64,000 nucleotides of DNA from an uncultured Candidatus Saccharimonadales bacterium (GTDB lineage: Bacteria > Patescibacteriota > Saccharimonadia > UBA4664), in contig CAZSRA010000005.1 of assembly GCA_964609585.1 (NCBI GenBank), positions 2,502 through 66,501 on the forward strand, given 5' to 3'. The translations under genes and the position numbers were made by a program. Every line of letters starts with the position of its first letter. The stretch's first letter is position 1. Shown here in pieces: positions 2,594 to 57,096 of the stretch. A model generated the notes under the pieces. It ran no database searches, was not told the origin of the DNA, and worked only from the letters and a program-made list of their open reading frames with translations.

Positions 2594-5500
2594 ATGGATG
2601 AGCAAGAACCGCACGCTGATAAAGAAGGTGCATTTCATGACTACGCTGCAGACTTCGCTGAAGCTACGAGCGCGGAATTGTCCCAGGATACTAAGACGAG
2701 CTCTTCAGATAGATATAGTCTTTTACCTCCTGAAGTTCGAGCCGCTTACGAAACAGGAGATGCAGATCAGCTAACTAGGGCCATCCAGACGGGTCTTATG
2801 ACCGCCATTAATATTGACAGTGAGACTGGTATTTTTGCGGCCAAGAATAAGGCCTTACTTGAACAACAATTAGTCGCCAGCGGCTTAGTTGCAGAGTTGG
2901 CCGAAGCTTATGCTACTTTAACTGATCCAGGAGTACCCGGCTCGCAACCGGGACGCCGAATACATCAAAGTCAAAGAAGTAGGCGGTTCATCGAATTAGC
3001 TGCAGGGGTACCTTATGACGAGGCTGGTCATCCAAAGGATGGCAAAACTCATGTTCTGGCCACGGATCATAATGATTTACTGGCCACTGATTGGGTTGCA
3101 CTTGCTTCTCTTCAAGAACCCGGCATCGAACAACAGAAATATTTACAGAGGTCTCTTGATGCACTTCGTGTTCGTCGAGCTTCGCGGCCGCAGAATTCCT
3201 ATGGTGTGGAAGAATATGTGGGGATAGCCGAAACGATTACTCCAGGTCTTGTGCCGAATATTCTCACCCTCGCTCGCGAGGCTCGTCAAATAAATGGTTT
3301 TAGTTCAGACCCTTTAGTCGACCAGGCCGATGCCGCAATCCTACAGTTCATACATAATGGACGAGAAGATCTTGCGACAGCGCTTTTAACCCCCTCGGGG
3401 AACGAGCCAGAACGGATCGCTCGCGCGCAGGATACTCTCCAGATGAGCACGGAAGAAAGAGACGCAACCGTACAACGTGCCGTAGCGCTGTATCAGGAAA
3501 AGGTTAAACAGTTTCGTGAAGCTATGACCGATCGCGGAATTCCTGAGGATATATTTGATCTAATAATCGATTCTATTTTATCTCATACAAATGATCCGGA
3601 GACGGCTCTTGAGGTTTCGCCGGATTTCTGGCAAACATTGGATGCCTTGCCTTATGCCGTAGAGGATAGCTTTTACAATACAAAGGGCTCGTTAGGCAGG
3701 GCATCTGAGTGTATTCAAGCCCTCGCGCAAAACGGATTGCTTGCTCAGTCACCTCGGGTTTTACCGGAAATGATGATTTTTGAGGACTCGACTAGCCGAG
3801 AGGCTTATGCAGCTTCGCTTTCTGAAGCCATCAGTGCTGAAGAGTCTGCAGGACGATCCTGGTCCGGTGGCTTTGCAGGTTTTAATGATCCTGCGGCCGC
3901 AAGAGAACTAGCTCTTCGTTTATTTCCACCCGAGGATCTATCCTCAGCCTCCCAAGCAACGATGACGCTTCTCGATGATCATCTCCACAAAGCGTATGGT
4001 CACCTGCCTTATTCCGATGGTCTCGTAGTGCTTAACCCCGAGCATAGCTCTTTTCTTGAGAGGGCAAAGGAGCTGCTCGTTAAGGGTGGACTTAGCGATG
4101 ACGGAGCCCTAGAACATATAGGCAAGCTCGCTATCAACTCTGAAGACGGCCCTGAAAATAGCGCTAAACTCTTGGACGCGCTTTCGATGTTTGAAGGACG
4201 ACAAGACGCAGCTGAAGGTCTTGCTCTTATGCTTGCTGCTAAAAACCCCGCAGAAGCCGCAAAAACGTGGGCCACCTACTCTAGGGAAGTTTCGACTTTA
4301 CCCGAATCTGCGCAAGCCGACCTTAAAAAAGTCTTCAGTGAGAGTCTCGAGCCGATGGAACATGCCCAGGCCTACTTTGGGCTTGTGACTGAGCTAGCAG
4401 CCCATAATGTTGCTCTCGGCCAGGATAATAGCTCAAGCTTCAGAGACCTATTTAAAAATACTCTGAGAGCGCCCGGGGAAAGGCAAAGGCTTATTGAAAA
4501 TTTTGTGGACCGAGATGTTATTTCTCGAGAAACACGCGCACGTTTGTCGCCGTACTTCCATGAGATCGTAGCCGAGGCCAAGGCCAAAACAGATGACGAT
4601 ACAGAGGAGGTAAAGCCCCCAGACCCTAGTACTCCTATCGAAGCTGTCGATCCATTTGAAGCCTACCCGGAAACGAAGGCCATCTTTAGGCGACTTGGCA
4701 TACCGGAACCCGTTGCCAAGGTTATGTACGATACCTGGCGAAGCTACGACAGCCTTGGTAAGGTCGCTCGGGATCAAGAAGACAGAGATTTCAAACCGAA
4801 GAAGCTCAAAGATTTTACTCCCGGTGATATCGAGGCTGTTTTAACCACTCGCATCAATAGAGTGAATCAACAACTTCTCGCAGCAAAAGAATATATTCGC
4901 GCCTATGGAATAGAAGAACTCCTGGAAGTGCACGACACATTTGAGACGGTAAACTTTATCCGCTCTAGACCTGAACGAATGCATGATCAGCTTATGCGCT
5001 GGCAAGATCCTAATGAAATAATAAAGGTTTTATCGGCTTCGGCATACCGGGATCCTAATGGAGCCTTTGATACAGCTGCCAATGATGCCTTTGGGCGGTT
5101 TGGTGAACCTGGTACCTTTTGTTTTGAGGCCAATGGTAAGGTTGGAATTGCTAAAATGGCCGTCAAGGCTGGCAAACGGGAACGAAGCATGGGACGTGAT
5201 CCCGAAATTGATTCACAACTCGAAATTGTCGAGATAAATGCACATGGCTCTCCTTCGACTTTAGCTCTTGGCGTTAAATTTGATACGCATGGCGATCTGC
5301 TGACTCAGGACGGATGGGATGTGGAGGATAATCTTGATCTAGAGGCCTACGCTCAGGCTGCTCAGAATCGAACAAAGGTCAAGGCCTTTGCTAATACTTA
5401 TAAAAAACATCTCGGCAGCGGTTATCGTGTAATCTTAAGCGCCTGCAGCACGGCTGGAGATGTAATCTTGAAAGCTTCAGAACAGGTAGATCCTGGTGAT

Positions 5501-5677
5501 CAGGGGTTAAAGAACATTGCTGAGACGTTGTCTGATGCACATGGTCGTCCGGTTTTTGCTAGTCCTAAAGATATTTACTCATACTCCATCGCCCCAGATG
5601 GAGCCATTGCTTTTGTAACTTCGCGAGATGGCAGAGAGCTAACTCCAGCTCGCATATACGAATCAGAGACGGTTTAA
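2594..5677 (+). CDS. large (1027 aa) hypothetical protein with a C-terminal CHAT/caspase-like protease signature
   Basis: Long uninterrupted ORF with no signal peptide or TM helices and a largely helical N-terminal 800 aa. The last about 200 aa contain EINAHGSP...RVILSACSTAGDV, resembling the His and Cys catalytic dyad of CHAT/caspase-fold peptidases. A GGGAGG RBS-like motif sits about 21 nt upstream, so the start may be slightly off. Confidence 0.6.
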   Translation: MDEQEPHADKEGAFHDYAADFAEATSAELSQDTKTSSSDRYSLLPPEVRAAYETGDADQLTRAIQTGLMTAINIDSETGIFAAKNKALLEQQLVASGLVAELAEAYATLTDPGVPGSQPGRRIHQSQRSRRFIELAAGVPYDEAGHPKDGKTHVLATDHNDLLATDWVALASLQEPGIEQQKYLQRSLDALRVRRASRPQNSYGVEEYVGIAETITPGLVPNILTLAREARQINGFSSDPLVDQADAAILQFIHNGREDLATALLTPSGNEPERIARAQDTLQMSTEERDATVQRAVALYQEKVKQFREAMTDRGIPEDIFDLIIDSILSHTNDPETALEVSPDFWQTLDALPYAVEDSFYNTKGSLGRASECIQALAQNGLLAQSPRVLPEMMIFEDSTSREAYAASLSEAISAEESAGRSWSGGFAGFNDPAAARELALRLFPPEDLSSASQATMTLLDDHLHKAYGHLPYSDGLVVLNPEHSSFLERAKELLVKGGLSDDGALEHIGKLAINSEDGPENSAKLLDALSMFEGRQDAAEGLALMLAAKNPAEAAKTWATYSREVSTLPESAQADLKKVFSESLEPMEHAQAYFGLVTELAAHNVALGQDNSSSFRDLFKNTLRAPGERQRLIENFVDRDVISRETRARLSPYFHEIVAEAKAKTDDDTEEVKPPDPSTPIEAVDPFEAYPETKAIFRRLGIPEPVAKVMYDTWRSYDSLGKVARDQEDRDFKPKKLKDFTPGDIEAVLTTRINRVNQQLLAAKEYIRAYGIEELLEVHDTFETVNFIRSRPERMHDQLMRWQDPNEIIKVLSASAYRDPNGAFDTAANDAFGRFGEPGTFCFEANGKVGIAKMAVKAGKRERSMGRDPEIDSQLEIVEINAHGSPSTLALGVKFDTHGDLLTQDGWDVEDNLDLEAYAQAAQNRTKVKAFANTYKKHLGSGYRVILSACSTAGDVILKASEQVDPGDQGLKNIAETLSDAHGRPVFASPKDIYSYSIAPDGAIAFVTSRDGRELTPARIYESETV

Positions 5678-5831: not shown

Positions 5832-5915
5832 TGGTGCGCGAGAGAGGACTCGAACCTCCACGCCTTGCGGCACTTGCCCCTCAGACAAGCGTGTATACCA
5901 TTTCACCACTCGCGC
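5832..5915 (-). tRNA. tRNA-Leu (anticodon GAG), type II with long variable arm, CCA encoded
   Basis: The reverse complement GCGCGAGTGGTGAAATGGTATACACGCTTGTCTGAGGGGCAAGTGCCGCAAGGCGTGGAGGTTCGAGTCCTCTCTCGCGCACCA folds as a cloverleaf by hand. It has a 7-bp acceptor stem, anticodon stem CTTGT/GCAAG with loop CTGAGGG, a GGAGG-TTCGAGT-CCTCT T-arm and an extra arm. Confidence 0.85.
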
Positions 5916-6342: not shown

Positions 6343-7968
6343 TTATGTATACACGAGGTAATCGTGTTGGCGTCCACGTGCGAATTCGGTCCGTAGATGC
6401 GCGCGAATGTAGTCCTCGGTGGCACCGGTCTTTTTGGTGGGATTGAAAATATTCTGGGGATCAAAGATGTGTTTGGTGGTGGCGAGGAGTTCAAAGAATT
6501 CTTCACCGTAGATTTTTGCAAGCGACGCGGCGCGCAGGAGATTATCGTTGTGGGTAGCCGAAGGGACGCCGCCGAGAGAAATAACGAGGTCGATGTATTC
6601 ATGGCTGAGGGTAAAGAGCTTGTCGACGTCTTTTTTGCGAGCTAGATCGAGGCGAGGCTGAAACCGCAAATTGCCAGTGCCGGCGTGGCCCCAAATGGCG
6701 ACTTCGAGATCGTGTTTGGCGAGGAGTTTGTAGATTTTGTCGAAGAGTTGCGCGAGCTTGTCTACGGGAACGGCGGCATCTTCCACAAATGGCAGCGCTT
6801 TTTTGGGTCCGTGTCCGAGCCAGGCTGCAACCGACGCGCGTCGAATTTTCCAGAGTGCGACTTGCTCTACGGGGTTTGTAGAAATACGCACCGTGCCGTT
6901 ATGGCGCTTTATGATGCGAGCAGCTTTGGTGCTGCGAAGCTTTTGGCTAAATTGAGAAGCGTTGTCAAACTCTACGAGCATGACGAGTCGCGGCACATCC
7001 TCGGGTATGAGATCTTTGAGGTCGGCTGGCCGCAGATTGTGGTGGAATTCGAGTACGTTGTGGTCGACGATTTCAACGGCGCTGGGTTCCAGAGTCAGCA
7101 ACCGCTTCACAGCGGCGGTAGCTTCGGGTACGGAATCGAAATTCCCGACCACAAGCGTTGTACGAGGATTATAGGGGGCGATCGCTAGAGTGATCTCGGT
7201 AATGAGACCGAGGGTGCCTTGGGAGCCGATGAAAACTTGGCTAAGGTCAAAAGAGCCGTTTTTACCGCGAACAGACCAAAGATCGTAGCCGGTAGAATTT
7301 TCTACCCCGGTTACTTGGCTTTTTTTAATGAGGGCTTCGTGGTCAGTGAGGAGGTTATCGAATTTGCGGTAGAGCTCGCCTTCGAGCGTGCTGAGACCTT
7401 TTTTGCGATTGAGTTCGCGGGCACTGATGCGACGAGTTTCAATGAGCGAACCGTCTGCAAGCACCACCTTTAAACTACGAACGGCTCGGCGGATAGTGCC
7501 ATATTTCACCGATTTTTCGCCACCGGAAGCACTCGCGACCACTCCCCCAATGGTGGAATATTCGTCGCCAATGGGAGCCTGCGGAATATGACGAAGGTGC
7601 GTGTAGAGCGCTTGCTGCAGCGTGTGGACGATAATGCCCGGCTGAACGGTGACGGTGTTGCGGTCGAGGCGGATGAGTTTGTTCATGTGGGCCGGGAAAA
7701 CAATCTGCAGGCCTTCGCCGACGGACCCGCCGCTTTGGTCACTCCCCTTCCCGCGGGCGACTATGGGCAGCGGGCGACCGGAAGCGGTACGTTCGTCGGC
7801 AAATTGGACGGTTTTGCAGACGTCGGCGGTGTTTTGAGGGTAGACAACTGCTGTTGGGGCGGCGGTAAAAATGCTTTGGTCCGTGGAGAAATGCTCAAGA
7901 GTGTCGGGGTCGTCGGTAACGCTTCCGAGCAGGCGGCTTTGGAGCTCTCTGAGATAGGCGTGTTTCAT
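6343..7968 (-). CDS. FAD-binding oxidoreductase (FAD-linked oxidase, GlcD/D-lactate dehydrogenase-like)
   Basis: Has an N-terminal PCMH-type FAD-binding segment (AVVYPQNTADVCKTVQFADE...PIVARGKGSDQSGGSV) and a C-terminal FAD-oxidase_C-like region. The start chosen is MKHAYLRELQ at 7968; the ORF-track start at 8109 adds 47 aa that are probably untranslated. Confidence 0.75.
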   Translation of the reverse strand: MKHAYLRELQSRLLGSVTDDPDTLEHFSTDQSIFTAAPTAVVYPQNTADVCKTVQFADERTASGRPLPIVARGKGSDQSGGSVGEGLQIVFPAHMNKLIRLDRNTVTVQPGIIVHTLQQALYTHLRHIPQAPIGDEYSTIGGVVASASGGEKSVKYGTIRRAVRSLKVVLADGSLIETRRISARELNRKKGLSTLEGELYRKFDNLLTDHEALIKKSQVTGVENSTGYDLWSVRGKNGSFDLSQVFIGSQGTLGLITEITLAIAPYNPRTTLVVGNFDSVPEATAAVKRLLTLEPSAVEIVDHNVLEFHHNLRPADLKDLIPEDVPRLVMLVEFDNASQFSQKLRSTKAARIIKRHNGTVRISTNPVEQVALWKIRRASVAAWLGHGPKKALPFVEDAAVPVDKLAQLFDKIYKLLAKHDLEVAIWGHAGTGNLRFQPRLDLARKKDVDKLFTLSHEYIDLVISLGGVPSATHNDNLLRAASLAKIYGEEFFELLATTKHIFDPQNIFNPTKKTGATEDYIRAHLRTEFARGRQHDYLVYT

Positions 7969-8283
7969 ACCTTTATGATACGGTGGAGCGCGAAAAATTA
8001 CAAAGCGCTTATGGCAAAAAAAAGCGGGTTCTCCGAAATTCCTCGCTGTCGCTTTCACGAAGATTCTGTTCAGCCCCGTTCGATACATTATTTTCAGGCA
8101 TGTGGGCATTGGTGGTATTTCTAAAATTTAAAGCGCTTATGGTAAAATTTTTGATTCTTTTGTCTTAGAAAAATGAATCATTTTTTTATAAATTCATGAT
8201 CGTGTGGTCGGGCAGAAAACAACAAGCTCGATTTCACACGTACCAACCCCTTCTTCTCTTTGATGTGAGGAGGTGTGAAAAGC

Positions 8284-8394
8284 ATGGAGGAGTACGAGAC
8301 GCCCGAAGCGTTCGAGCTCGGCAACCTCCGCGACGAGACCCACGGCAGCAACGGGTTCAACGACGCGGACGACACGCAGTACGACCAGGCGTAG
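8284..8394 (+). CDS. lasso peptide precursor (A peptide), 36 aa; not in the ORF track
   Basis: atggaggagtacgag...caggcgtag encodes MEEYETPEAFELGNLRDETH/GSNGFNDADDTQYDQA. GAGGAGG sits 8 nt upstream. The leader fits YxxPxLxxxGxxxxxTx with Y-17, P-14, G-8 and T-2. The core starts with Gly1 and has Asp7 and Asp9 available for the isopeptide ring. It lies immediately upstream of the C, B1 and B2 genes. Confidence 0.65.
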   Translation: MEEYETPEAFELGNLRDETHGSNGFNDADDTQYDQA

Positions 8395-8493
8395 GCGCCG
8401 GGTCGTACATAAGTTTTGCCCGTAATGGGTGAAGCTGCATGCCGGGGGCGTATATCGTCCCCGGCATGTCCCCATCTTCCTAAGGAGTATTGA

Positions 8494-10314
8494 GTGTTCT
8501 GGATCGCAGGGTACCATTCGTCCGATCATGCTCCCGCCAAGCAGCGACCGCGAGCAGGAGTTCTTCGACTGGGGGCCCGGGACTCCTGGTGGAGCTGTGG
8601 CTATCCCGATAGGTCCATCCGACAGGTACAAAACCAAACCTGTACCATGTTCGTGGTCGGCGACTGCCTCGCAACTGACGAAGAGCTGGAAACTTCACTG
8701 TCCAGCGCCGAAAAAGGCGCCTGGATGAACCTGATGATGTGGCCCGGGAATTACACTGTCGTCGTTTCGAGAGCGAGCAACACGACAATCCTTGGTGACC
8801 TGTCTGGAGTCAACCGGGTATACTATGCTCGTCATCAGGATGGTTGGTGGTGGTCGAACACAGCGAAGCCATTGGCAGCCTTGATTGGTGATGAGGTTGA
8901 CTTGACCTTGCTCGCCCTCGACATCAGCGTCTATGGCATCGACCTGTTCAACGGGAGAGCCCCATTCCGGCGAGTAGCCGCCATCCCTCCAGGGTCGGCG
9001 TTGCAGTTTAAGGATGGTGAGCCCTCCGTAATCCAGTGGTATGAACCAACGTACACGACATCTTTCTCGGCAACGGCGGAGGCTCTTCGAAACGCACTTC
9101 TTGACTCAACCAGGCGAAGAAGCCTCCTGGAAGGAGACGTTATATCCGGTGATTTGTCCGGTGGCTTCGATTCCAGCGGCGTACTAGCGGCGATGAGCCA
9201 AGAAAGATCAACCGTCGGCGTTACTCATGTGCACCCCTTGCTCAGCGATGAGGATGCACGATATGCAAGAAGAGTGGCCGAGGCCTGTAGCATTCGACAG
9301 ATCGTGGCTCAAGGAGATCAGTCTACCTTGCATTATGGTGGGTTGGACGACCCTGCGAGACTGCCCGTGACTGATCTTCCAGCCGCGGATGTCTTTTTGG
9401 CGAACTACAACCGGCAAAAGCTTCAGTTTGCTGCTGAAGCTGGAAGCCGCCACCATCTCACCGGTGCAGGAGGTGACTCCATGCTCGATGCATCCAGCAC
9501 TAGGATCGCGGATCAAATCATGATGGGCGACTGGGCGGGAGCGGTGAGGGCAACTTTCTTTATGGCCCACCGAACCGAATGTCCTCCATGGCGCATTGCT
9601 CGAGCCATGTGGATACTTGCTCATACCTCACATGAGCAGTCGCTCCGAGAGGTAGCTCGGTCCCTACCGGTTGTTCAGCCATACCTGGGCAGACACAAGC
9701 CGTGGGAGCACATAGCTTGGCACCTCCCTTCAACCGGCGCGAACTGGCTTACGGCCAACGCCGCTCAAGAAGTAGCCAAGCTTATGCGTGGACTGCTTAG
9801 AGATATGCCAGGTAGTTGGGCGAAGCGGCCAGGAGAGTTCCATGACTGGACGGGACTTCTTCGGACGGGCATAGAGAGAAAGTCGACGGTGGAACAGGCC
9901 CGCTTGCTCGGCATTACCATACACGACCCTTATCTCGATGCCCAGGTGATCCGGTGCTGCATGGCATTGCCGGGCCATATCCGGACATCGGGTGCTGGCT
10001 TTAAGCCGCTGCTATCTGCAGCGCTACCGAGCGTAATCCCGCCATTCTTGGCCGCGCGAACGACCAAGGGATCCTTCACGAGGATGATGTATGCAGGCAT
10101 CAAGCTGAACGAGCCTTGGCTGCATCAGCTCATCTCATCCTCGACGCTCATAGAGAGTGGGGTGATCAGGAAAACCGCAGCAGAAGAAACACTGAGACGC
10201 GCAGTCCATGGGCTAAATGCTCCTTTCAGAACGTTGCACCAATTCGTAGCAACGGAAATATGGCTGCAAGGCTTGGTGCTAGCAGAAAAAGATTGGTGGG
10301 AGACGAATAGATGA
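8494..10314 (+). CDS. lasso peptide isopeptide-forming cyclase (asparagine synthetase B-like, C protein)
   Basis: Contains the PP-loop ATP-pyrophosphatase motif SGGFDSSGVLAAM and an AsnB-like C-terminal half. The true start is probably the internal Met MFVVGDCLATDE at about nt 8647. The gene abuts the precursor and the B1/B2 genes. Confidence 0.8.
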   Translation: MFWIAGYHSSDHAPAKQRPRAGVLRLGARDSWWSCGYPDRSIRQVQNQTCTMFVVGDCLATDEELETSLSSAEKGAWMNLMMWPGNYTVVVSRASNTTILGDLSGVNRVYYARHQDGWWWSNTAKPLAALIGDEVDLTLLALDISVYGIDLFNGRAPFRRVAAIPPGSALQFKDGEPSVIQWYEPTYTTSFSATAEALRNALLDSTRRRSLLEGDVISGDLSGGFDSSGVLAAMSQERSTVGVTHVHPLLSDEDARYARRVAEACSIRQIVAQGDQSTLHYGGLDDPARLPVTDLPAADVFLANYNRQKLQFAAEAGSRHHLTGAGGDSMLDASSTRIADQIMMGDWAGAVRATFFMAHRTECPPWRIARAMWILAHTSHEQSLREVARSLPVVQPYLGRHKPWEHIAWHLPSTGANWLTANAAQEVAKLMRGLLRDMPGSWAKRPGEFHDWTGLLRTGIERKSTVEQARLLGITIHDPYLDAQVIRCCMALPGHIRTSGAGFKPLLSAALPSVIPPFLAARTTKGSFTRMMYAGIKLNEPWLHQLISSSTLIESGVIRKTAAEETLRRAVHGLNAPFRTLHQFVATEIWLQGLVLAEKDWWETNR

Positions 10315-10616
10315 GATACACGGCATCGAGACATGTACGACAAGTCGAATTCGAAGACGGATCGGTAGTACTGTGGAACCTTGCGGTTCGAAGGGGGAAC
10401 AATACACTGTTGCTGCCTCGAGGGGCGGCGGCCGTCCTCTGGAATTCCCTTAAAGGAGGTGCGTCTGTCGAAGAGGCCATAGAGACTCTTCAGACTCGGT
10501 ACAGTGTCGATAGGAGTCGGCTCGAAACCGATCTTCAACCGATCATCCAAAGTCTGCTAAAAAACAAGATGCTCGTCGATCCCTCACGTGTCCAAAGATG
10601 GTGGAGATTAGCGTGA
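10311..10616 (+). CDS. lasso peptide B1 protein (PqqD-family RiPP recognition element)
   Basis: 101 aa with the PqqD/RRE pattern FEDGSVVLWNLAVRRGNNTLLLPRGAAAVLWNSLKGGASVEEAIETLQTRYSV. Its ATG overlaps the stop of C in an ATGA arrangement, indicating translational coupling. Confidence 0.75.
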   Translation: MRYTASRHVRQVEFEDGSVVLWNLAVRRGNNTLLLPRGAAAVLWNSLKGGASVEEAIETLQTRYSVDRSRLETDLQPIIQSLLKNKMLVDPSRVQRWWRLA

Positions 10617-11032
10617 CTCTGTCCATGATCGAGCGCGACAATAGCTCTGCTGGGCTGTCGCTGCAAACCAAATGCCTGGGGATTATCGGCGCCATAGGGG
10701 CGCTTTTCGTTCTCCTGGCTCCCCTCCCTGTAGTCGAAGCATGGCTGAAGTGGCTTCGCAAGAAGACTAAGCCGGCCAAAGCAACTGAGACCGAAGAGCT
10801 GATCCGGGCAGTTCGGTGGGCGATGCGATTCTATCCCGGTAGGTTCGACTGCCTGCAAGTGCCACTGGGTGCTTGCATGGCCGGAGCACTAAGAGGCCGC
10901 ATGCCTACATGGTGCATCGGCGCTAAACTGAACCCTGTGGTTCAACATGCCTGGGTAGAGGCAGAGGGCCGGCCTGTCGCCGAGCCCGAGGCAGGATCCG
11001 ACTGGCCCTACAAAGCGGCAATCAGGATTTAG
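10598..11032 (+). CDS. lasso peptide B2 protein (transglutaminase-like leader peptidase)
   Basis: Contains RFYPGRFDCLQVPLGACMAG...WCIGAKLNPVVQHAWVEAEGRPV, i.e. the Cys and His (HAWVE) core of the lasso B / Transglut_core3 family. It overlaps the B1 stop; an alternative GTG start at 10613 would give a GTGA overlap. Confidence 0.8.
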   Translation: MVEISVTLSMIERDNSSAGLSLQTKCLGIIGAIGALFVLLAPLPVVEAWLKWLRKKTKPAKATETEELIRAVRWAMRFYPGRFDCLQVPLGACMAGALRGRMPTWCIGAKLNPVVQHAWVEAEGRPVAEPEAGSDWPYKAAIRI

Positions 11033-11152
11033 CCGCGATCACTAGCTCTGGCTTTTAACTAATTGCTAGAGCTGGCTGGGACCTCCGGCTGCAGAGCTGG
11101 AGGTCCCGGAGCCAATTATTCATGATTTTATGATTAGTATAGGATGGAATAT

Positions 11153-12283
11153 TTATCTAATAACCGCTGCAACGGCCGCAGCGAGGCCAGGCGTGAAGGC
11201 GCCGGGAATAACTTCGCCCGGGGTTGGTGATACTACGAGCTTGGCTAAGACTTCGGCGGCAGCTATTTTATGGGCATCGGTGATGGCCGTAACGCGATGA
11301 TCGAGCGCGCCGCGGAAGATTCCGGGGAAAGCTAGAGAGTTGTTTACTTGATTAGCGAAGTCGCTGCGGCCAGTGGCTACGACGGCGGCACCGGCAGCCC
11401 TGGCGATATCGGGCATTATTTCTGGGACAGGGTTTGCCATGGCGAAAATTATAGGATTTTTGGCCATGGTCTTGATCATTTGGGCCGTGAGAACGCCGGG
11501 CTGCGAAACCCCAATAAAAATGTCTGCCCCGCGGACTGCTTCGGCCAAGGAGCCGGGGCGAGGCATGCGATTGAACGAAAGAAGAGTTTGTTTTTCGGAG
11601 CTGAGATTGGTGCGATCGTGGCTAACAATCCCCCGGCTGTCGACGGTGATAATGTCGGAGCCGGCATATAGATGAATGAGCTTGGCGATGGCGACCCCCG
11701 CGGCTCCGGCTCCGGACAGCACAATTTTGCTTTCTGAGAGCGGTCGGCCGGTGATTTTTGCGGCGTTGATGAGACCGGCTAGAACTACTACTGCGGTACC
11801 ATGTTGGTCGTCGTGCATTACGGGGATGGAGAGTCTGGCTTTTAGCCGTTCTTCGACTTCGAAACAAAGGGGCGCTGCGATGTCTTCGAGATTGATGCCG
11901 CCAAAACTGGGCGCAATGGCGGTAACCGCAGCCACGATTTCGTCGGCAGTATGGACGTCTAACACAATTGGCACGGCGTCGATGCCAGCAAAATGCTTAA
12001 ACAGCATGGCCTTGCCCTCCATCACGGGGAGCGCACCGAGAGGGCCGATGTTGCCGAGGCCGAGCACGGCTGAGCCATCGCTAACGACGGCCACATTGTT
12101 GCCGGTCCAGGTGTAGTCGCCGGCCTTTGAAGGATGGTTTGCAACATAGGTGCTGACGGCCGCAACGCCAGGGGTGTAATAAAGACTGAGTTTTTCGCGA
12201 GTATCAGGGGTGTCCTTGAGGCGGATTTCGATTTTGCCTTTGAGCTTTTTGTGCTGGGTAAGTGATTTTTTGCTGTAATCCAT
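11153..12283 (-). CDS. NAD(P)-dependent malic enzyme (short form)
   Basis: Motifs YTPGVAAVS, VVSDGSAVLGLGNIGPLGALPVMEGKAMLFKHFAGIDAVPI and the NAD-binding GAGAAGVAIAKL. The start taken is MDYSKK at 12283; the ORF track extends to 12328. Confidence 0.85.
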   Translation of the reverse strand: MDYSKKSLTQHKKLKGKIEIRLKDTPDTREKLSLYYTPGVAAVSTYVANHPSKAGDYTWTGNNVAVVSDGSAVLGLGNIGPLGALPVMEGKAMLFKHFAGIDAVPIVLDVHTADEIVAAVTAIAPSFGGINLEDIAAPLCFEVEERLKARLSIPVMHDDQHGTAVVVLAGLINAAKITGRPLSESKIVLSGAGAAGVAIAKLIHLYAGSDIITVDSRGIVSHDRTNLSSEKQTLLSFNRMPRPGSLAEAVRGADIFIGVSQPGVLTAQMIKTMAKNPIIFAMANPVPEIMPDIARAAGAAVVATGRSDFANQVNNSLAFPGIFRGALDHRVTAITDAHKIAAAEVLAKLVVSPTPGEVIPGAFTPGLAAAVAAVIR

Positions 12284-12375
12284 GCAGATATTGTAGCGCA
12301 TGTCGATGTGCGAGCGGCCGCAATTCAATTTAACTTATGTATAATAATAGTTAGTTTAGCTTTTGAGGATGAAGT

Positions 12376-12753
12376 GTGAAGCAGTATCAAATTCTCTTAG
12401 TGGAAGACGAGAAGCCATTGGCTCAATCGTTAAAAATCAAGCTTGAACAAGCCGGGTTTACGGTAGTGCTAGCCCATAACGGTCATGAGGGTTTAGGGTT
12501 TATGGATCAGCGAACCTTCGACCTTATTCTTCTTGATTTGGTGATGCCGGTGATGGACGGGTTTGAAATGCTTGAAGAGCTTAAACGGCGAAAAAATAAA
12601 ATACCAGTTATTGTTACCACCAACCTCAGTCAGGGCAAAGATCTCCAGCGAGCCAAGAGTCTTGGAGCTACCGATTATACCGTGAAAGTAGATACTCCAT
12701 TGAGGGTGATTGTTGAACGAATTAGAGAAGAGCTGGCTGCTGGGGGCGAGTAA
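12376..12753 (+). CDS. single-domain response regulator (CheY-like receiver)
   Basis: Shows the REC pattern LLVEDE...DLILLDLVMPVMDG...PVIVTTNLSQ...GATDYTVK. GTG start. Confidence 0.8.
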   Translation: MKQYQILLVEDEKPLAQSLKIKLEQAGFTVVLAHNGHEGLGFMDQRTFDLILLDLVMPVMDGFEMLEELKRRKNKIPVIVTTNLSQGKDLQRAKSLGATDYTVKVDTPLRVIVERIREELAAGGE

Positions 12754-12768
12754 CTAATTAGGAGTATT

Positions 12769-13440
12769 ATGCAAGCAACTCAGATTACAAAAGATACATG
12801 GCAGCAAAAATGGCTTACTCGAGGCTTTATTTGCATGGTATTGCTTGTGGTTTTTTTCGTTGGACAAGGGGTCGCACAGCTTGCGACTACCGGCTCATAT
12901 AGTGCAAAAGATCAGTCTATTAGTGCGCTGGGTATTACAGCGTGTGGTAATTATCAAGAGCCTCAGACAAAGCAGTGGTTTTACCTTTGCTCTCCTCTGC
13001 ATATTGTTATGGACGGAACATTCGTAGCATGCGGCATTCTCATAATGCTTGCGACGATGCTCGCTATTGGGCCGCTTTGGCCTGGGCGTAAGTTGCGGAA
13101 GGCGGGTTTGGTTTTGCTATTTTTTGGAGGGATTGAGGAGGTTGTTGCAGGGTTTTCGCCGCTCAATTTAGCTCCTTTTTTGCATAGCCTATCGGGCGGG
13201 CTTGCAATTACGGCCCTCAACCTTGGCCTGATTCTACTTGGCTTTGCGGGGCTTAAGAAGCAGCCTGGATTGGGGTGGTTTGCGCTTGCGAGCGGGGCTA
13301 TTGGCGTATTTGGCCTGATGATGAGCGGCACGCCGCCTTACGTTGGGCTTGGATATGGGGGATGGGAGCGGGTCGCCGGATTTGCTTTTGTGATATGGAG
13401 CGTTGCGATGGGGACTTATTGGTTGCTAAGGCAGCGATGA
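12769..13440 (+). CDS. hypothetical integral membrane protein
   Basis: 223 aa with about 6 TM helices; 16 nt downstream of the response regulator. Confidence 0.5.
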   Translation: MQATQITKDTWQQKWLTRGFICMVLLVVFFVGQGVAQLATTGSYSAKDQSISALGITACGNYQEPQTKQWFYLCSPLHIVMDGTFVACGILIMLATMLAIGPLWPGRKLRKAGLVLLFFGGIEEVVAGFSPLNLAPFLHSLSGGLAITALNLGLILLGFAGLKKQPGLGWFALASGAIGVFGLMMSGTPPYVGLGYGGWERVAGFAFVIWSVAMGTYWLLRQR

Positions 13441-17282: not shown

Positions 17283-20200
17283 TCAGGGTGCAGAACTCAC
17301 ACGCCAGAGTGTTACTTGTCCCTCGAAGCCGACCGCCGTCTCGACCTTAGTGGATCGAGCCAGGAGGGCCTGAGTCGGGGCGTCCAAGCTGCTCAGGCTG
17401 TTCGTGTCACTGGTGTAGGTCATAATCCAGCGCACTTTGCCCGCGCACTGAGTTGTCTGCCACTGGATGTCGCACCACGGCTGAGAAATCTCGTTGCCGA
17501 TAGTGACTTCCGTCAGGACGACGTCCTGGGTCGGCACATACTCCTGCGCCAGTGTGGCTGCGACGCCGATAGCGTTGTCCTTGTGATCGACGATTCGCCA
17601 CCAAAAGCCACCGAGGTTGAGTGCTCCGATGAGAACGACCGCGACCATCGGGACCAGTCTCCGCCTGGCAGTAGTGCCGCGAAGCCAGCCGGTAACTTCC
17701 GCCGCCAGGTAGACATACAGGGGCACGAGCACGAGCTCGAAGTAGCTCGGGTAGCGGAGCTTGATCGCCCCGAACCCAATCACGGCGGCCGTGGCCCAGG
17801 CAAACAGCACCTGGTTATCTCTGACGGGCTGGAAGCTGCGTCTCATCAGACACTGCACCCAGCGGACCGCCATCACCGTGACACCGGAGGTCGCGACCAG
17901 GATCGAACCCACGAAGATCCGGTATTGATCGAACAACGGGCCGATGAGTTGGCCTGTGCTGTTAATAGAGCCACGACGAGCACCGGTTGCATTCCCGAAG
18001 GTCCGCTGCACCTGCTGCCCCATCTCCCCCCAGAACTGGCCGTACGCCGGGTTGAGCAGGGTCATGACCAGCAGATACCCCGTCACGATCGTAAGAGCGG
18101 TGGCGAAGAACTGGATGTGGTGGCGGTGGTACTTCCGGAAAATGAGCCAGCTTATTGCTGCCGCCAGCAGAACATAGGCGTCGGTGTGTTTGAACACCAC
18201 CGCCATACCCGCGGCAGCTCCGGCCAGAATGAACTGACCAGGAGTTGGGCGCTGTACTGCACGCCAGTAGAGCCACATGGCGGCGGTCACAAACACGATG
18301 GCAGTGTTCTCCATCCACCCGATGCGGTTGGCGTAGATCATCCAGCTATCGGTAGCGAGAAGCCCCGCGGTCACAAGCGCCGGCCTTGAGCCGATCGCTC
18401 GCCGCATGAAAGCCCAGAGCAGCAGGAGGGCCACCAGCGAGGTCGCCGCAGCAAGCCACCTGGCGGCGGCGATACCGGTTTGACCGACCAACTTGTCCCA
18501 CCCGGCCAGCTCCCAGAAGTAGAACGGAGGCTGGTAGAAGAAGGTTGAGACATGGTCGGCATAGTCGGGCCGACTCGCGAGGCGTCCTCCAGAGAGGAGG
18601 TTCCGTGCGATGGCCGAGTAGGCCGTCTCGTCCCAGATGAATCCGGGCCGGTTGTTGATGTTCCAGAAGCGCAAGAGCGCGGCGATGCCGAGGACTCCGA
18701 TGAGGGAAATCGACTCTCGACTCGCGAACTTACGACGCTTCCTTTTCGCACTTGATGGAGATGACATCATCCCTTCCTTTCCGGGTAGACTTGACGTCCC
18801 CCGCTTGATGTGGAGTCCGTGGAAGATCCCGAGGGTGAAAATCGACCCCAGAAACAGGGTAAGGAACGGGTAGAAGAACGCCTCCGGGCGCTTATTCTTC
18901 CGCACCTCAACTGATCCGAGGACTATAGCCGCCCCACTTGCCGCTCCTCCACCGACCAGGTCGGCTGAGGAGCCCAGTGCCGTCACGATGACAGCGATAG
19001 CCACCATCGATGCAGCCGAAGCCAGCACCAAAAGCGACTGCCGGGAGCGTCGCCTTGCGAACATGCTGTCGCGGTGTCGAACGATAAAGTCCGAACAACC
19101 TTGACCACCCCTCATGTACTCGCGGACAACGCCACGGAACCCCTTCCCGTGATCGTGGCCGCAAGTTAGAGCAGGAGCGAACCTGATACCGAACCCCTCC
19201 TTCGCGATCCGATAGAACCACTCGTAGTCCTCGTAGGATCGCTTCATGGAGACATCGGGGCCACCCACCGCCTCGAACACCGCGCGCGTGATGAACGCGT
19301 TGGCCGTCGTCGGAGGCTTGCAGCCGCGTCCGCCGAACGTGCTTGCGTCGAGCGTATACGGCTTGGGTACCCTGAGGGTCTTGGCGCCGAACACGTTGTG
19401 ATCCATGTACCGGCACCAGAAATCGCTGCCGAGCGAGTAAACGCCCCCGCCGACGCACTGCCACTCGCCGCTCAGCATCTCGCTGACGCCAGTGGCAATC
19501 CAATCTTGGGGCGGGATCGTGTCGCTGTCGGTTAGCGCGAAGATCTCACCCTTCGCGTTACTCAGTCCGGTGGTTCGTTTGACGTTGGCGTCACGCCCGG
19601 GGCCTGACGCATCCACCTCGAGGGTTCGGATGCGCGGGTCACTCTGGAGATCGCCGAGAGCTTCCCACGTCGGGTCGTTTATATCCCCGACAAGGATGAC
19701 TTCAGTCCTCCCGCCGTACTCTTGGTTCAGCAACGAGCTAACAGTCGCACGGATAGTGCGGCCGCTGCCCAAGCTGCCCTTTACTGGAATGACCACGCTC
19801 ACAAACGGCAGCGTGTGGATCGTCCCTCCATCTTGAGGATCCTGATTGTTGGTCACGTCGGACGTATCCGGACGACTCTCTTCGGGACCCATCGCCGATA
19901 GCCGAGCCGGGAAGGCCCAGAAGTGGCAGACGACGTAGTTGATCGCGGTGAAGATGGCGGTCGTTGCGAGCGCTGCCACAAGGTACTCCATGCCCAGCTT
20001 GATCAGGACGAAGTAAATCGCCTGGTTAACCGGAATGGTGACCACTCTCATGAGGTGGAATCGCCAAAAACTGACCCGGAAGCGGCTCTGCCGCTTCCTC
20101 CAGGTGAGCCTCCAGTTCAGGAAGAAGCTCGTCTCGATCGAGAGGAACCCCTGCAGAAAGAAGGCCGCCTGCTGTCCGAGATGGAGCCAGTGGACCTCAA

Positions 20201-20408
20201 AGTACAGACCGCCGACGCCGAACACGAACACGAGAGCGCCGATGAGGCTGAAGCTAGTGAGCGCAGCCTGGTGACGCCTGTACAGCTCTTGGACACTTCT
20301 GGGCACTTTGCCCTCCAGGTACGTTCTCCAAAGCTGGAACAACTTGGTCGACATGAAGACTGTCACCCTTCTTGGTCTTGAACGAATGATTTTGAACCTA
20401 CAAAACAA
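17283..20408 (-). CDS. tripartite fusion glycosyltransferase: GtrA-like flippase domain, GT2 polyprenyl-phosphate sugar synthase domain, and GT39/PMT_2 (ArnT/PMT-like GT-C) membrane domain
   Basis: N-terminal GtrA-like 4-TM region (VNQAIYFVLIKLG). Central GT2 region with VSVVIPVKG and the DXD motif ALTDSDTIPPQDW. C-terminal multi-TM region with the GT-C loop motif FIWDETAYSAIARNLL and FYQPPFYFW. GC is about 66%. An alternative start is MSTKLF at nt 20354. Confidence 0.75.
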   Translation of the reverse strand: MFCRFKIIRSRPRRVTVFMSTKLFQLWRTYLEGKVPRSVQELYRRHQAALTSFSLIGALVFVFGVGGLYFEVHWLHLGQQAAFFLQGFLSIETSFFLNWRLTWRKRQSRFRVSFWRFHLMRVVTIPVNQAIYFVLIKLGMEYLVAALATTAIFTAINYVVCHFWAFPARLSAMGPEESRPDTSDVTNNQDPQDGGTIHTLPFVSVVIPVKGSLGSGRTIRATVSSLLNQEYGGRTEVILVGDINDPTWEALGDLQSDPRIRTLEVDASGPGRDANVKRTTGLSNAKGEIFALTDSDTIPPQDWIATGVSEMLSGEWQCVGGGVYSLGSDFWCRYMDHNVFGAKTLRVPKPYTLDASTFGGRGCKPPTTANAFITRAVFEAVGGPDVSMKRSYEDYEWFYRIAKEGFGIRFAPALTCGHDHGKGFRGVVREYMRGGQGCSDFIVRHRDSMFARRRSRQSLLVLASAASMVAIAVIVTALGSSADLVGGGAASGAAIVLGSVEVRKNKRPEAFFYPFLTLFLGSIFTLGIFHGLHIKRGTSSLPGKEGMMSSPSSAKRKRRKFASRESISLIGVLGIAALLRFWNINNRPGFIWDETAYSAIARNLLSGGRLASRPDYADHVSTFFYQPPFYFWELAGWDKLVGQTGIAAARWLAAATSLVALLLLWAFMRRAIGSRPALVTAGLLATDSWMIYANRIGWMENTAIVFVTAAMWLYWRAVQRPTPGQFILAGAAAGMAVVFKHTDAYVLLAAAISWLIFRKYHRHHIQFFATALTIVTGYLLVMTLLNPAYGQFWGEMGQQVQRTFGNATGARRGSINSTGQLIGPLFDQYRIFVGSILVATSGVTVMAVRWVQCLMRRSFQPVRDNQVLFAWATAAVIGFGAIKLRYPSYFELVLVPLYVYLAAEVTGWLRGTTARRRLVPMVAVVLIGALNLGGFWWRIVDHKDNAIGVAATLAQEYVPTQDVVLTEVTIGNEISQPWCDIQWQTTQCAGKVRWIMTYTSDTNSLSSLDAPTQALLARSTKVETAVGFEGQVTLWRVSSAP

Positions 20409-42417: not shown

Positions 42418-43947
42418 TTGTATTTTATTGACGAATTACGTGCTTTACCCTATAGTCCCGGACACGACGTGAACCTCGACAACCTAGGAGCAATCATGGT
42501 TTTTAAGTGCCGACGGCCCGGAGAGATTCTCGGAAATGTTCTCCAGGACGCTCAGGGAAATGTCACCGGCGGGCGTGTGTTCGGGTGGGAAGCAGAACAG
42601 GGTATTTCTTGCCTAGAGATGCTTGACGGCAAGCTCGAAGTGGCCGATAACCACACGATGTGGAGCATGCTCTGCCATGTATACCCCCCAAGCCACCCCT
42701 TCAATCGTTCGGGTAATCGCCACTACATCGATGTGGGGAGCCACCCCGAGCGCTGTACGGCTGAGCACAATACAGTCCGAGGGATCGTTCGCGATTTCTT
42801 CTTCGGCGAGGGCGAGATGGACCGCCGAGCGCGCGCCGCTACGAGATACTTCAAAGAGGCGAAGCAACGCGATGTCTATCTGAAAGTCTGGGGTGGCAAC
42901 ACTACCGGCGGAGAGACATATGCAGGTCATGCCAACTACCAAATCTGGCTGCCGATCGACACAGCCATCTCAGATGATCGCATGAGTATCGAAGACTTCA
43001 TGTATCCGCTGGCGCCCTTCTTGGCAACCTGTTCTATCGTTCTGGGCGCAGGTGACCTGGTATGGGATGGAGACGGACTCCACATGAACGTGTCCGTTCG
43101 AGCGAGCCGCATCTGGGACGCGTTCTCCTGCTCCACCACCCGAAGCCGATCGCTCGTCAATCTGCGCGACGAGCCGCACGCCGGGGATGGTTCGAGCCGC
43201 CTGCATGTCATCAGCTTCGATGCACCCATCCGACCTCGAACCAAGGCTCGGATACACTCCCTGATGGTCGTACTGCTTACTATGCGCGAGCAGGGCAAGC
43301 TCAAGGGCCTCAGACTATCGGGCGAGGAGCTCGTACAGGTGACTCAAACCGTCACCCGCAACCCGGAGTACAAGTTCTCGCTTGAGTGCGGCAATAAAAG
43401 CGCATTTGATATCCAGAGGACCTATGCCCAGGAAGCCCTGGAGTTCGTCACTGGTCGGGTCGGTCTCGAGCAGTTCGCACCCTGGGTCGAGGACTATATG
43501 CGGTGCCTCGATCTGATCGCCGAGCATGGCTACAACGCCGAGGCACTCAGCGACGAGCTGGACTGGGCCCTTACGTGGGAATCGGTCCAGGAGCTGGTGA
43601 GGGCTGGCCACACCAGCAGAACCAAGCTTTTCGGCCGCCAACTAGAGCTACACCTACATACGGGCAGAGACACCCGACGGATGCGAGCGGCGGCGGCCGA
43701 CCCCTGGTTCGAAAGGTTTGGTCTGCACGAGCTACCCGAAATCCTTGAGCCCCCCAGAACTCGCGCTTGGGCGCGTGGGGCAGTCATCGCGGCCGCCCAG
43801 GAACTCCGCCTGGACTTCAACGCGGATTGGGAGATTGTGGTCGTGAATGGGGAGTCCATTCATCTACCAAAACCCGGCAGCCCGAAACTCCCGTTCCAGG
43901 CTCAGAACTTGGTCCGCCAAGCGGGCCTCGAACACTTACTAGTCTGA
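42418..43947 (+). CDS. Pup-ligase/deamidase family (PafA/Dop-like) glutamine-synthetase-fold amidoligase
   Basis: RVFGWEAEQGIS matches (R)IMGIETE(F/Y)G(V/I)S. YIDVGSHPERCTAE matches PafA YLDVGSHPEYATAE. VWGGNTTGGETYAGHANY matches PafA KNNTDGKGASYGCHENY. GC is about 65%. The true start is probably ATG 42496 (MVFKCRR...). Confidence 0.75.
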   Translation: MYFIDELRALPYSPGHDVNLDNLGAIMVFKCRRPGEILGNVLQDAQGNVTGGRVFGWEAEQGISCLEMLDGKLEVADNHTMWSMLCHVYPPSHPFNRSGNRHYIDVGSHPERCTAEHNTVRGIVRDFFFGEGEMDRRARAATRYFKEAKQRDVYLKVWGGNTTGGETYAGHANYQIWLPIDTAISDDRMSIEDFMYPLAPFLATCSIVLGAGDLVWDGDGLHMNVSVRASRIWDAFSCSTTRSRSLVNLRDEPHAGDGSSRLHVISFDAPIRPRTKARIHSLMVVLLTMREQGKLKGLRLSGEELVQVTQTVTRNPEYKFSLECGNKSAFDIQRTYAQEALEFVTGRVGLEQFAPWVEDYMRCLDLIAEHGYNAEALSDELDWALTWESVQELVRAGHTSRTKLFGRQLELHLHTGRDTRRMRAAAADPWFERFGLHELPEILEPPRTRAWARGAVIAAAQELRLDFNADWEIVVVNGESIHLPKPGSPKLPFQAQNLVRQAGLEHLLV

Positions 43948-50045: not shown

Positions 50046-50678
50046 TTAGCAGTGGTGTTTTTCGAGAGTGACATGGAAGATAACGAGGCCTGTGAGTTTG
50101 CTCGTTTGGACAATGAGGTATGGGTTTGAGGTAGCCTGGGTAATACTACAAGTGATTGTGGGCGTAGACTCGGTAACATTGACCTGGGTTCCCGTGGCGC
50201 TCGCTGTAATATTGGTAATATGCAGGCCGTAACCGGTGGTGAGCTCGGGCCCAAGATTTAGGCCGATGACGCTGGCTGTCGTAAAGTCGATCGGAATAAT
50301 AGGCGGTAGCGTAGGCAGACCTGCGTGCACTGCTTGCCAATACCGTTTCCAATCGGCGGCCGTGTTTATGAGCTGCTGGCCATGGCCTGGGACTTTAGCG
50401 CGAGTATCACCGTCAACGAGGATCTCGAAAGGCACGGAAATGATGGGCGGGGCAGGAGAGGCCGCCGGTTTTGGGGTACCAATGAGGTTGTTGGTGCCGT
50501 CGCGGCAAATGGGAGGATCAACATCGAAAACGGGATTACCGGCCTCTAGACAATCAGCGTACGAAGCAATGGGTGCCGTAGAGCTAGCGGACACAAAAAT
50601 AGCCATGACGCTGGCAAGCGAAAGGCTCATTAGTAGTTGCAACCACTGTCTTCGTTTTATAAACGTGAGCACTTTCAT
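50046..50678 (-). CDS. hypothetical secreted protein
   Basis: N-terminal signal/TM anchor and a Thr/Pro-rich mature region. Confidence 0.45.
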   Translation of the reverse strand: MKVLTFIKRRQWLQLLMSLSLASVMAIFVSASSTAPIASYADCLEAGNPVFDVDPPICRDGTNNLIGTPKPAASPAPPIISVPFEILVDGDTRAKVPGHGQQLINTAADWKRYWQAVHAGLPTLPPIIPIDFTTASVIGLNLGPELTTGYGLHITNITASATGTQVNVTESTPTITCSITQATSNPYLIVQTSKLTGLVIFHVTLEKHHC

Positions 50679-56109: not shown

Positions 56110-57096
56110 TTACCCCTTACGCTTCAATAAATCGAGCGCTTTTTTTGCTATGTGGGGCGCTGTGAGGCCAAAATACTCGAGAAGTTCGGCGGGCGCGCCC
56201 GATTCTCCAAACCGGTCGAGCATGCCGATACGCGCCATGGGAACGGGATGATGATCGGCTAGCGTTTCAGCCACGGCGCCACCGAGGCCGCCCGCGATTT
56301 GACCCTCTTCTGCCGTGAGGACGGCGCCAGTTTTGCGAGCACTGGCGACGATGGTGACGGTGTCGAGCGGCTTTACGACGGCGGCGTTGATGACTTCAAC
56401 CTCAATCCCCTTTTTGCTCAGGGCCTCGGCAGCTACCAGGGCCTGATAAACCATGGTGCCGCAGGCCACGATGGTGAGGTCTTTACCGAGACGTAGTACT
56501 TGGGCTTTGGATAGGGAGAAGGGTGAATTTTGGGTCGTAATGACGGGTGATTTTTCGCGAGCAAGGCGAAGGTAAGCGGGGCCATAATGGCCGGCGATGG
56601 TGTGGGTGGCTTTTTCGGCTTCGACGGCATCGGCCGGGACTATTACGATCATATTCGGCAAAACGCGCATGAGCGCGATGTCTTCGAGCATCTGGTGGGT
56701 GGCGCCGTCGGGGCCAACCGAAACACCGGCGTGAGAGCCGACGATTTTGACATTGGTGTCGTTGAGGCAAATGGTAGTGCGGATTTGCTCCCAGTTGCGA
56801 CCGGGAGAAAAGGCGGCGTAACTCGAGACAAACGGGGTTTTGCCAGCAAGAGCCATGCCGGCAGCCACGGTAACGAGATTTTGCTCTGCCACCCCGATTT
56901 CTACAAAACGCTCGGGGTAGCTTTTGGCAAATTCGATCATACGGGTGGATTCGGTGAGGTCGGCGCAGAGGGCGACTACGTTTTTATTGGTGTGAGCAAC
57001 GCCAACGAGGCCTCGGCCAAAACCTAGGCGAATGGCTTCTTGTTTTACTTCGGCCGAGAAGAGGTCGGGAGTGAGATATTGTTTGGGCTCAATCAT
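56110..57096 (-). CDS. transketolase, C-terminal subunit (pyrimidine-binding plus C-terminal domains)
   Basis: Motifs GVAEQNLVTVAAGMALAGKTPFVSSYAAF...GPDGATHQMLEDIALMRVLPNM. Matches the split-transketolase arrangement. Confidence 0.85.
   Translation of the reverse strand: MIEPKQYLTPDLFSAEVKQEAIRLGFGRGLVGVAHTNKNVVALCADLTESTRMIEFAKSYPERFVEIGVAEQNLVTVAAGMALAGKTPFVSSYAAFSPGRNWEQIRTTICLNDTNVKIVGSHAGVSVGPDGATHQMLEDIALMRVLPNMIVIVPADAVEAEKATHTIAGHYGPAYLRLAREKSPVITTQNSPFSLSKAQVLRLGKDLTIVACGTMVYQALVAAEALSKKGIEVEVINAAVVKPLDTVTIVASARKTGAVLTAEEGQIAGGLGGAVAETLADHHPVPMARIGMLDRFGESGAPAELLEYFGLTAPHIAKKALDLLKRKG

Follow-up and report, generated by a model that had tools for sequence, protein, structure and literature searches.

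A probable class II lasso-peptide operon with a conserved precursor in a Candidatus Saccharimonadales bacterium

The DNA analysed here is a stretch of 64,000 nucleotides (hereafter the window; contig CAZSRA010000005.1, positions 2,502 to 66,501) from an uncultured Candidatus Saccharimonadales bacterium, a lineage within Candidatus Saccharimonadota/Saccharimonadia that is part of the candidate phyla radiation (CPR, or Patescibacteria). ORF (open reading frame) listing and reading of the sequence revealed four plus-strand ORFs in the order A-C-B1-B2, 2.9 kb in total, and we estimate at about 80% the probability that they form a functional class II lasso-peptide operon in the chromosome of such a bacterium. 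In lasso peptides of the known kinds, an Asp or Glu closes a ring of 7-9 residues (PMC8498205). A previous sequence-only reading of the window had proposed a complete A-C-B1-B2 cluster, and this is borne out both by scores above curated thresholds for C, B1 and B2 and by comparison with homologous clusters. The operon and its boundaries comprise the following features:

8110-8283: intergenic region between the FAD-linked oxidase gene and the lasso operon, AT-rich (35% GC)
8267-8273, plus strand: GAGGAGG, ribosome-binding site (RBS) of A, 10 nucleotides ahead of ATG 8284, by sequence reading
8284-8394, plus strand: precursor gene A, 36 amino acids and stop; full peptide MEEYETPEAFELGNLRDETHGSNGFNDADDTQYDQA
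8284-8343, plus strand: leader of A, MEEYETPEAFELGNLRDETH
8344-8391, plus strand: core of A, 16 residues, GSNGFNDADDTQYDQA; Asp9 codon at 8368-8370
8412-8436 and 8437-8469, plus strand: two adjacent hairpins (10-bp and 14-bp stems) in the 99-nucleotide gap between A and C, with no U tract after them
8482-8487, plus strand: AAGGAG, RBS of C, by sequence reading
8494-10314, plus strand: lasso cyclase C, 606 amino acids from a GTG start, an Asn-synthetase-like ATP-dependent macrolactam synthetase
10311-10616, plus strand: B1, 101 amino acids, a PqqD-like RRE, that is, a recognition element of peptides that are made on the ribosome and modified after translation (RiPPs)
10613-11032, plus strand: B2, a transglutaminase-like cysteine leader peptidase, 139 amino acids from GTG 10613 (alternatively 144 from ATG 10598)
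11042-11075 and 11076-11109: two strong hairpins between the convergent B2 and malic-enzyme genes, folding free energy -54.4 kcal/mol, z -6.83

The identities of the three enzyme genes are established by profile scores and motifs, and the calls of an AsnB-like cyclase, a PqqD/RRE protein and a transglutaminase-like protease all held when the suggested profile check was run, each protein exceeding its curated Pfam cut-off. The cyclase scored 78.7 bits against PF00733 (cut-off 21) and carries the PP-loop DLSGGFDSSG (DLSGGFDSS at amino acids 220-228), with an SGGxDS motif invariant in 22 relatives; its best NCBIfam model, NF033561, was passed marginally (300.1 bits, cut-off 300). B1 scored 35.2 bits against PF05402 (cut-off 23.4) and fell below the cut-off of the lasso-specific NCBIfam B1 models (27.7 versus 70). 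A profile of six B1 homologues matched the solved lasso RREs TbiB1 (5v1u, E 3e-13) and TfuB1 (6jx3, 6e-9), and B1 qualifies as a candidate leader-binding RRE. In B2 we read the motif DCL...HAWVE, whose Cys80 and His112 (139-residue numbering) are invariant in five relatives, and obtained 60.1 bits against PF13471 (cut-off 26) and 67.2 bits against NF033537 (cut-off 33). The third residue of its catalytic triad is uncertain; Glu126 is invariant.

All four ORFs are full length and free of frameshifts. Their lengths are in or close to the homologue range (C 606 versus 588-609 amino acids, B1 101 versus 89-95, B2 139 versus 138-143), and the A, C, B1 and B2 genes are thus read as intact. The public C protein (P0001, 555 amino acids) is called from Met52 and skips window positions 8494-8646. 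Since the N-terminal WIAGY motif that lies ahead of Met52 is conserved in homologues, the deposited gene model is probably truncated and we favour the longer form from GTG 8494. For B2, the gene call in an independent assembly, L002, uses the equivalent of GTG 10613. In the related locus L013, an intact B2 gene (7990-8421, plus strand, 143 amino acids, with an ATGA overlap with B1) was missed in the record, where a 105-amino-acid ORF on the opposite strand is called instead.

The operon is flanked by a divergent FAD-linked oxidase gene (6343-8109, minus strand) and a convergent malic-enzyme gene (11153-12328, minus strand). Its promoter presumably lies in the region 8110-8283, in which we saw no consensus sigma-70 site, and a promoter and terminator scan of 7.9-11.3 kb returned nothing exceeding shuffled expectation. 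The hairpins at 11042-11109 are likely to act as a bidirectional terminator closing the operon. The stop of C and the start of B1 overlap in ATGA (10311-10314), and B1 and B2 overlap either in GTGA at 10613 or by 19 nucleotides, if B2 starts at ATG 10598. Translational coupling, which the sequence-only reading had extended to all genes downstream of the precursor, therefore stands for C, B1 and B2 but not for A and C, which are separated by the 99-nucleotide gap with its two stable hairpins, C having its own AAGGAG site and GTG start.

The small ORF that had been taken for the precursor has counterparts directly upstream of the cyclase gene in five other loci (L009, L013, L012, L001 and L011), whose cyclases are 34-38% identical. 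The ORF listing places the start of A at GTG 8275, just 1 nucleotide past the GAGGAGG box that had already been noted, whereas ATG 8284 stands 10 nucleotides from it; because of this spacing we favour ATG 8284 as the credible start. The leader residues Y-17, P-14, G-8 and T-2 and the core residues Gly1, Asp7 and Asp9 are all present as first described, together with D10. Position -12 holds Ala where the motif YxxPxLxxxG has Leu, and the leader scored 16.7 bits against the NCBIfam model NF033521, lasso_leader_L3 (cut-off 19). The core contains no Cys, which fits class II lasso peptides, a class without a disulfide. The cores of the five related precursors are:

L009: GSAGNDKKDDTQYWV
L013: GTAGNNNADGTEYYE
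L012: GNKSNNNADDTEYRE
L001: GNKSNNDPDDTEYRE
L011: GGRWNHNPERNSTYWS

Three positions (T-2, G1 and Y13) are invariant in all six precursors, and Y/F-17, P-14 and G-8 are retained in four of the six leaders, including those of L009, L012 (Phe at -17) and L013. Core position 9 is Asp in five precursors and Glu in one, while position 10 is Asp in the window and three relatives, Gly in L013 and Arg in L011. The core family can be summarized by the motif G1...D9-x-T11-x-Y13. Such conservation across five diverged loci, which appears to be more than chance, establishes the precursor as a conserved family, and on sequence homology we consider its assignment confirmed.

The acceptor residue of the ring had been left open between Asp7 and Asp9, both of which are indeed present. 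A seven-residue Gly1-Asp7 ring made by the same operon would lie inside the known 7-9 range (PMC8498205), and Asp7 is found in the core of L001 as well as in that of the window. However, L009 has Lys at position 7, and L012, L013 and L011 have Asn there, whereas position 9 is acidic in six of six precursors, and a shared ring size is expected within a family of one cyclase clade; a ring closed on Asp7 is thus unlikely. Since residue 9 is the sole acceptor conserved in register, comparison of the six cores points to a nine-residue Gly1-Asp9 ring as the most likely form, in which Tyr13 would probably be the steric plug. The peptide predicted in this way has 16 residues, a computed mass of 1698.639 Da and a net charge of about -4; it would be strongly acidic, without further tailoring and without an obvious known analogue.

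A route to this product can be proposed. The 36-amino-acid precursor would be translated at a high level, favoured by its G/C-ending codons and by the hairpins after its stop codon, and B1 would bind the leader through the Y-17/P-14/G-8 motif. B2, using Cys80 and His112, would then cleave after His-1, guided by Thr-2, and free Gly1. Finally, C would adenylate the Asp9 side chain and couple it to the Gly1 amine, giving a nine-residue macrolactam around the tail DTQYDQA, with Tyr13 predicted to hold the threaded tail as plug.

The first step of this route would draw on two properties of the A gene and its surroundings. The gene has 64.9% GC and, with 36 of its 37 codons ending in G or C, a GC content at third codon positions (GC3) of 97%. 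This extreme codon bias is limited to the tiny A gene and recurs across homologous loci: precursor GC3 is 97, 97.5, 92, 96 and 74% (window 8284-8394, L001 1878-1997, L009 7821-7937, L012 7017-7166 and L011 7812-7937, respectively), as compared to 48-67% for the enzyme genes and an overall GC content of 45-56% for the loci. For four loci the binomial p values of this excess are 1e-7 to 1e-12; for L011 the value is about 0.01.

The second property is the pair of hairpins in the A-C gap, which in the window have a folding free energy of -46.9 kcal/mol (z -3.99), a stability reached by none of 200 shuffled sequences. In all six loci the A-C gap measures 63-140 nucleotides and contains GC-rich hairpins of 12-18 bp (z -2.3 to -6.3) without a following U tract; their sequences vary among loci, their structure and position being kept. 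The hairpins at 8412-8469 are likely to stabilise or attenuate the mRNA and thereby to set the ratio of A to the enzymes. We infer that codon bias and hairpins together may serve to make precursor in large excess over enzyme, the former by efficient translation and the latter as a 3' stabiliser or partial attenuator. Similar inverted repeats occur in proteobacterial lasso operons; a literature search on hairpins between A and B/C genes returned nothing usable. The near-100% GC3 of A and the conserved hairpins after the precursor would offer a neat case of expression tuning inside a RiPP operon.

The flanking genes and the closest named cyclases point to a Candidatus Saccharimonadales host, a lineage that we regard as established for this contig. 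More than 100 proteins share 72-82% identity with the malic enzyme encoded beside B2. Those with a name belong to Candidatus Saccharibacteria/Saccharimonadales, with one exception labelled Bacillota; several of them sit on contigs of 0.8-1.45 Mb. An adenine glycosylase (1888-2460) is 65% identical to its counterpart in the same closest relative as the malic enzyme. Also present in the window are a split transketolase and core sugar-phosphate genes; large biosynthetic machinery is absent. The independent assembly L002 (SRR9179560) repeats the order C-B1-B2-malic enzyme-response regulator-DUF998, and this reproduced junction argues against a chimeric join.

An exhaustive HMMER search with the cyclase against 1.84 billion protein representatives returned 201 representatives at E<1e-30. 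The window cyclase is alone in its 50%-identity cluster, and its best other matches are 34-38% identical. The family was visible only by this exhaustive search: a word-indexed protein search gave 4 matches when queried with the cyclase and 3 when queried with the family alignment, two genome-contig searches (with the single cyclase and with a two-sequence alignment) gave no confirmed relative, and a metagenome-contig search with the two-sequence alignment gave nothing. The named proteins among the ten closest cyclases are HSE29343.1, on an 889-kb contig, and HSE60792.1, both from Saccharimonadales metagenome-assembled genomes (MAGs). We grouped the cyclases using the GARP/FYMINK amino-acid ratio as a proxy of genomic GC and a crude neighbour-joining tree without bootstraps. 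About 17 moderate-GC cyclases (50%-identity representatives) group with that of the window, including HSE29343.1, HSE60792.1, L001, L011 and L012, and in the same crude tree the high-GC-type cyclases form neighbouring branches of this Saccharimonadales-type group. Two such high-GC neighbours, L014 (67% GC) and L015 (70.5% GC), have cyclases 33-35% identical and fused B proteins.

L014 (1-6854) carries three tandem modules of cyclase plus fused B, which makes it a lasso locus of several modules within the nearest non-CPR relatives. In L015 (1199-5353), a PCMT-type methyltransferase gene is followed by a cyclase and a fused B gene beside an actinobacterial-style conservon (Robl_LC7/DUF742/ATP_bind_1); the locus resembles an actinobacterial cluster that includes a tailoring methyltransferase.

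A possible origin of the cluster in an actinobacterium had been proposed on the basis of a presumed 64% GC islet in a 55% GC backbone. The islet was not found: GC content is 56.6% for the operon, 56.1% for the span 8180-11032 and 56.0% for the window, and only the 111-nucleotide A gene is high. The operon stands at the 56th percentile of GC among window stretches of equal length. Its dinucleotide signature distance is 0.094 (versus 0.063 +/- 0.028), and 10.6% of such stretches have a distance at least as large. The tetranucleotide correlation of the operon is unremarkable, both signatures lying inside the spread seen across the window. There is thus no compositional sign of recent acquisition, and on the GC, dinucleotide and tetranucleotide statistics we reject a high-GC islet brought in by recent horizontal gene transfer. 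A true high-GC stretch does lie nearby, at 17283-20408 on the minus strand (60-63% GC, GC3 75%), where a 1041-amino-acid ORF fuses GtrA, GT2 and PMT_2 glycosyltransferase domains.

Several observations would agree with a recent import from an actinobacterium of high GC content, or with a fragment of actinobacterial DNA that was mis-binned or is chimeric, and not with a genuine CPR feature. The cyclase belongs to an NCBIfam family built on actinobacterial enzymes, the high-GC relatives L014 and L015 are 33-35% identical, and a Kribbella cyclase further down the match list is 30% identical. In L004, the closest relative, no lasso cluster is present between malic enzyme and adenine glycosylase, a test of insertion that is partly informative, as gene order around malic enzyme is poorly conserved among relatives. 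In addition, three of the six loci have a tRNA gene 0.3-2.4 kb upstream of the precursor (window 5832-5915, Leu; L012 6148-6224, Met; L013 5320-5395, Trp), and these genes may be integration hot spots. Against such an import stand the window-like composition of the operon, the repetition in L002 of its junction with Saccharimonadales-type genes, and the closest cyclases, which come from the moderate-GC Saccharimonadales-type loci described above, one of them on the 889-kb contig. Mutual identity among Saccharimonadales-type cyclases is below 50%, which would imply long residence or old transfers and not a recent arrival. Together these observations make a recent import or an assembly artefact very unlikely.

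The operon is better read as a chromosomal possession of the Saccharimonadales lineage, in which its host-like composition and the low mutual identity of the cyclases argue for long residence. As the cluster neighbourhood differs in every locus, the cluster is missing from the malic enzyme-adenine glycosylase interval of L004 and tRNA genes lie nearby in three loci, it is accessory and, over long timescales, probably mobile. The proposed actinobacterial origin would survive only as an old event, with Saccharimonadales-type cyclases as nearest relatives and high-GC actinobacterial-type ones next. Actinobacteria are known hosts of Saccharibacteria, and an old link of the cluster to them is plausible.

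Several points weigh against a functional lasso operon. Among the predicted components, the leader falls short of its model and lacks the Leu at -12, the cyclase barely reaches its family cut-off, and the loop from Asp9 to Tyr13 is short (three residues); the ring assignment is based on six sequences. Sequence searches of solved structures with C and with the B2 profile gave no match, and the single-sequence structure model of B2 (predicted local distance difference test score, pLDDT, 50) was unusable. The host is assigned from flanking-gene similarity and MAG labels, not marker-gene phylogeny, and the peptide, its cyclisation and its threading are predictions from the genes. The least probable of the alternatives, a decaying or silent remnant whose genes are recognisable yet whose product is no longer made, would suit a threshold cyclase, the reductive pressure on CPR genomes and a cluster without detected exporter, immunity gene, regulator or consensus promoter, but is opposed by four intact ORFs, by conserved catalytic motifs and key precursor residues, and by overlaps, RBSs, a codon-biased A gene and structured intergenic elements kept across deeply diverged loci, which speak for purifying selection.

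The closest known systems include actinobacterial-type class II lasso clusters with a split B protein, such as that of fusilassin/fuscanodin (TfuB1), and the TbiB1 system of Thermobaculum terrenum, with which the operon shares the gene order A-C-B1-B2, a stand-alone PqqD-like RRE, a leader of the form YxxP...G...T-2, and a core with Gly1, an Asp acceptor within positions 7-9 and no Cys. It differs from them in its host, a CPR Saccharimonadales bacterium rather than an actinobacterium or free-living Gram-positive, and in its cyclase, at most 38% identical to any other of the 1.84 billion representatives. It also differs in its unusually acidic core with its own D9-x-T11-x-Y13 motif and in lacking an ABC exporter. 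RES-701-type lasso peptides match the predicted product in their 16 residues, Gly1-Asp9 ring and short tail with aromatic plug residues. They are hydrophobic and Trp-rich, whereas the core described here is polar and acidic and shows no core sequence similarity to them.

The cyclase belongs to the family (NF033561) of the albusnodin-type systems, such as the alb cluster of Streptomyces albus, whose cores likewise have 15-16 residues and start with Gly1 (PMC9266682). In the albusnodin family a GNAT acetyltransferase is required, Lys10 is conserved and the B protein is fused (PMC9266682; bioRxiv 10.1101/2024.12.31.630886). A domain scan covering about 46 of the larger ORFs of the window found no GNAT, the flanking genes encode the FAD-linked oxidase and malic enzyme, core residue 10 is an Asp and B consists of two separate proteins; albusnodin-type chemistry is thereby ruled out, and the resemblance appears limited to cyclase ancestry.

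The D-type ABC exporter reported missing by the sequence-only reading is indeed not found. The sole ABC_tran match among the scanned window ORFs is UvrA, no ABC exporter lies near the cluster, and hairpins and housekeeping genes border the operon. Genes for an exporter, an isopeptidase, a kinase or another tailoring enzyme are not adjacent to the operon and none is conserved beside its relatives; no ABC transporter adjoins the clusters in L009, L011, L012 and L013. Neither an immunity gene nor a regulator was found for the cluster. In L011, a gene encoding a YcaO-nitroreductase fusion (10933-13059, 708 amino acids) comes immediately downstream of lasso gene B2, so that an enzyme of a second RiPP type, that of linear azole-containing peptides, sits beside the lasso cluster; this RiPP type was earlier reported in CPR genomes.

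The genomes of CPR bacteria such as Saccharibacteria are minimal, and these organisms depend on host bacteria, often Actinobacteria. Biosynthetic clusters have been reported as very few in CPR bacteria, those listed being for linear azole-containing peptides and lanthipeptides, with no lasso cluster among them (PMC7298704). Like these, the present operon is a small cluster for a RiPP and sits in a CPR bacterium with a reduced genome, but its RiPP class is a different one (PMC7298704). No lasso cluster in Saccharibacteria, Patescibacteria or CPR came up in our literature searches.

The biosynthetic system itself is canonical, and related cyclases from Saccharimonadales MAGs are already annotated automatically, HSE29343.1 as an albusnodin/ikarugamycin-family macrolactam cyclase. 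New here are a precursor family that had gone unannotated and has a conserved core, the prediction of the ring position, and the lineage context; the operon is one of a small, previously undescribed family of predicted lasso clusters in the Saccharimonadales lineage. The lasso biosynthetic logic is ordinary here and the interest lies in the host context: the four-gene cluster recurs, diverged, in several Saccharimonadales-type genomes with its core motif kept, suggesting that the peptide is useful in that lifestyle. A role in the epibiont lifestyle is speculation. One tentative and rather doubtful extension is that this is a Saccharimonadales-specific lasso family, anciently derived from actinobacterial hosts and kept in genomes of about 1 Mb for a role of the peptide between epibiont and host or against competitors; if true, it would be the first case of a RiPP effector linked to the episymbiotic way of life of CPR bacteria. 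The cluster being small and self-contained (2.9 kb), heterologous expression should be straightforward.

Other parts of the window yielded further observations. The N- and C-terminal transketolase genes are separate (56110-57096 and 58291-59163, minus strand), with an unannotated 198-amino-acid ORF between them and genes for FBA class II, RPE and GAPDH close by. An ORF of 1027 amino acids at 2594-5677 (plus strand), between the adenine glycosylase gene and tRNA-Leu, has no Pfam match. Finally, a Pup-ligase-family ORF at 42418-43947 (plus strand; 141 bits against PF03136) and another ORF, with a PrcB_C domain, at 50046-50678 (minus strand) resemble components of pupylation and the proteasome, which are unexpected on a Saccharimonadales-type contig.

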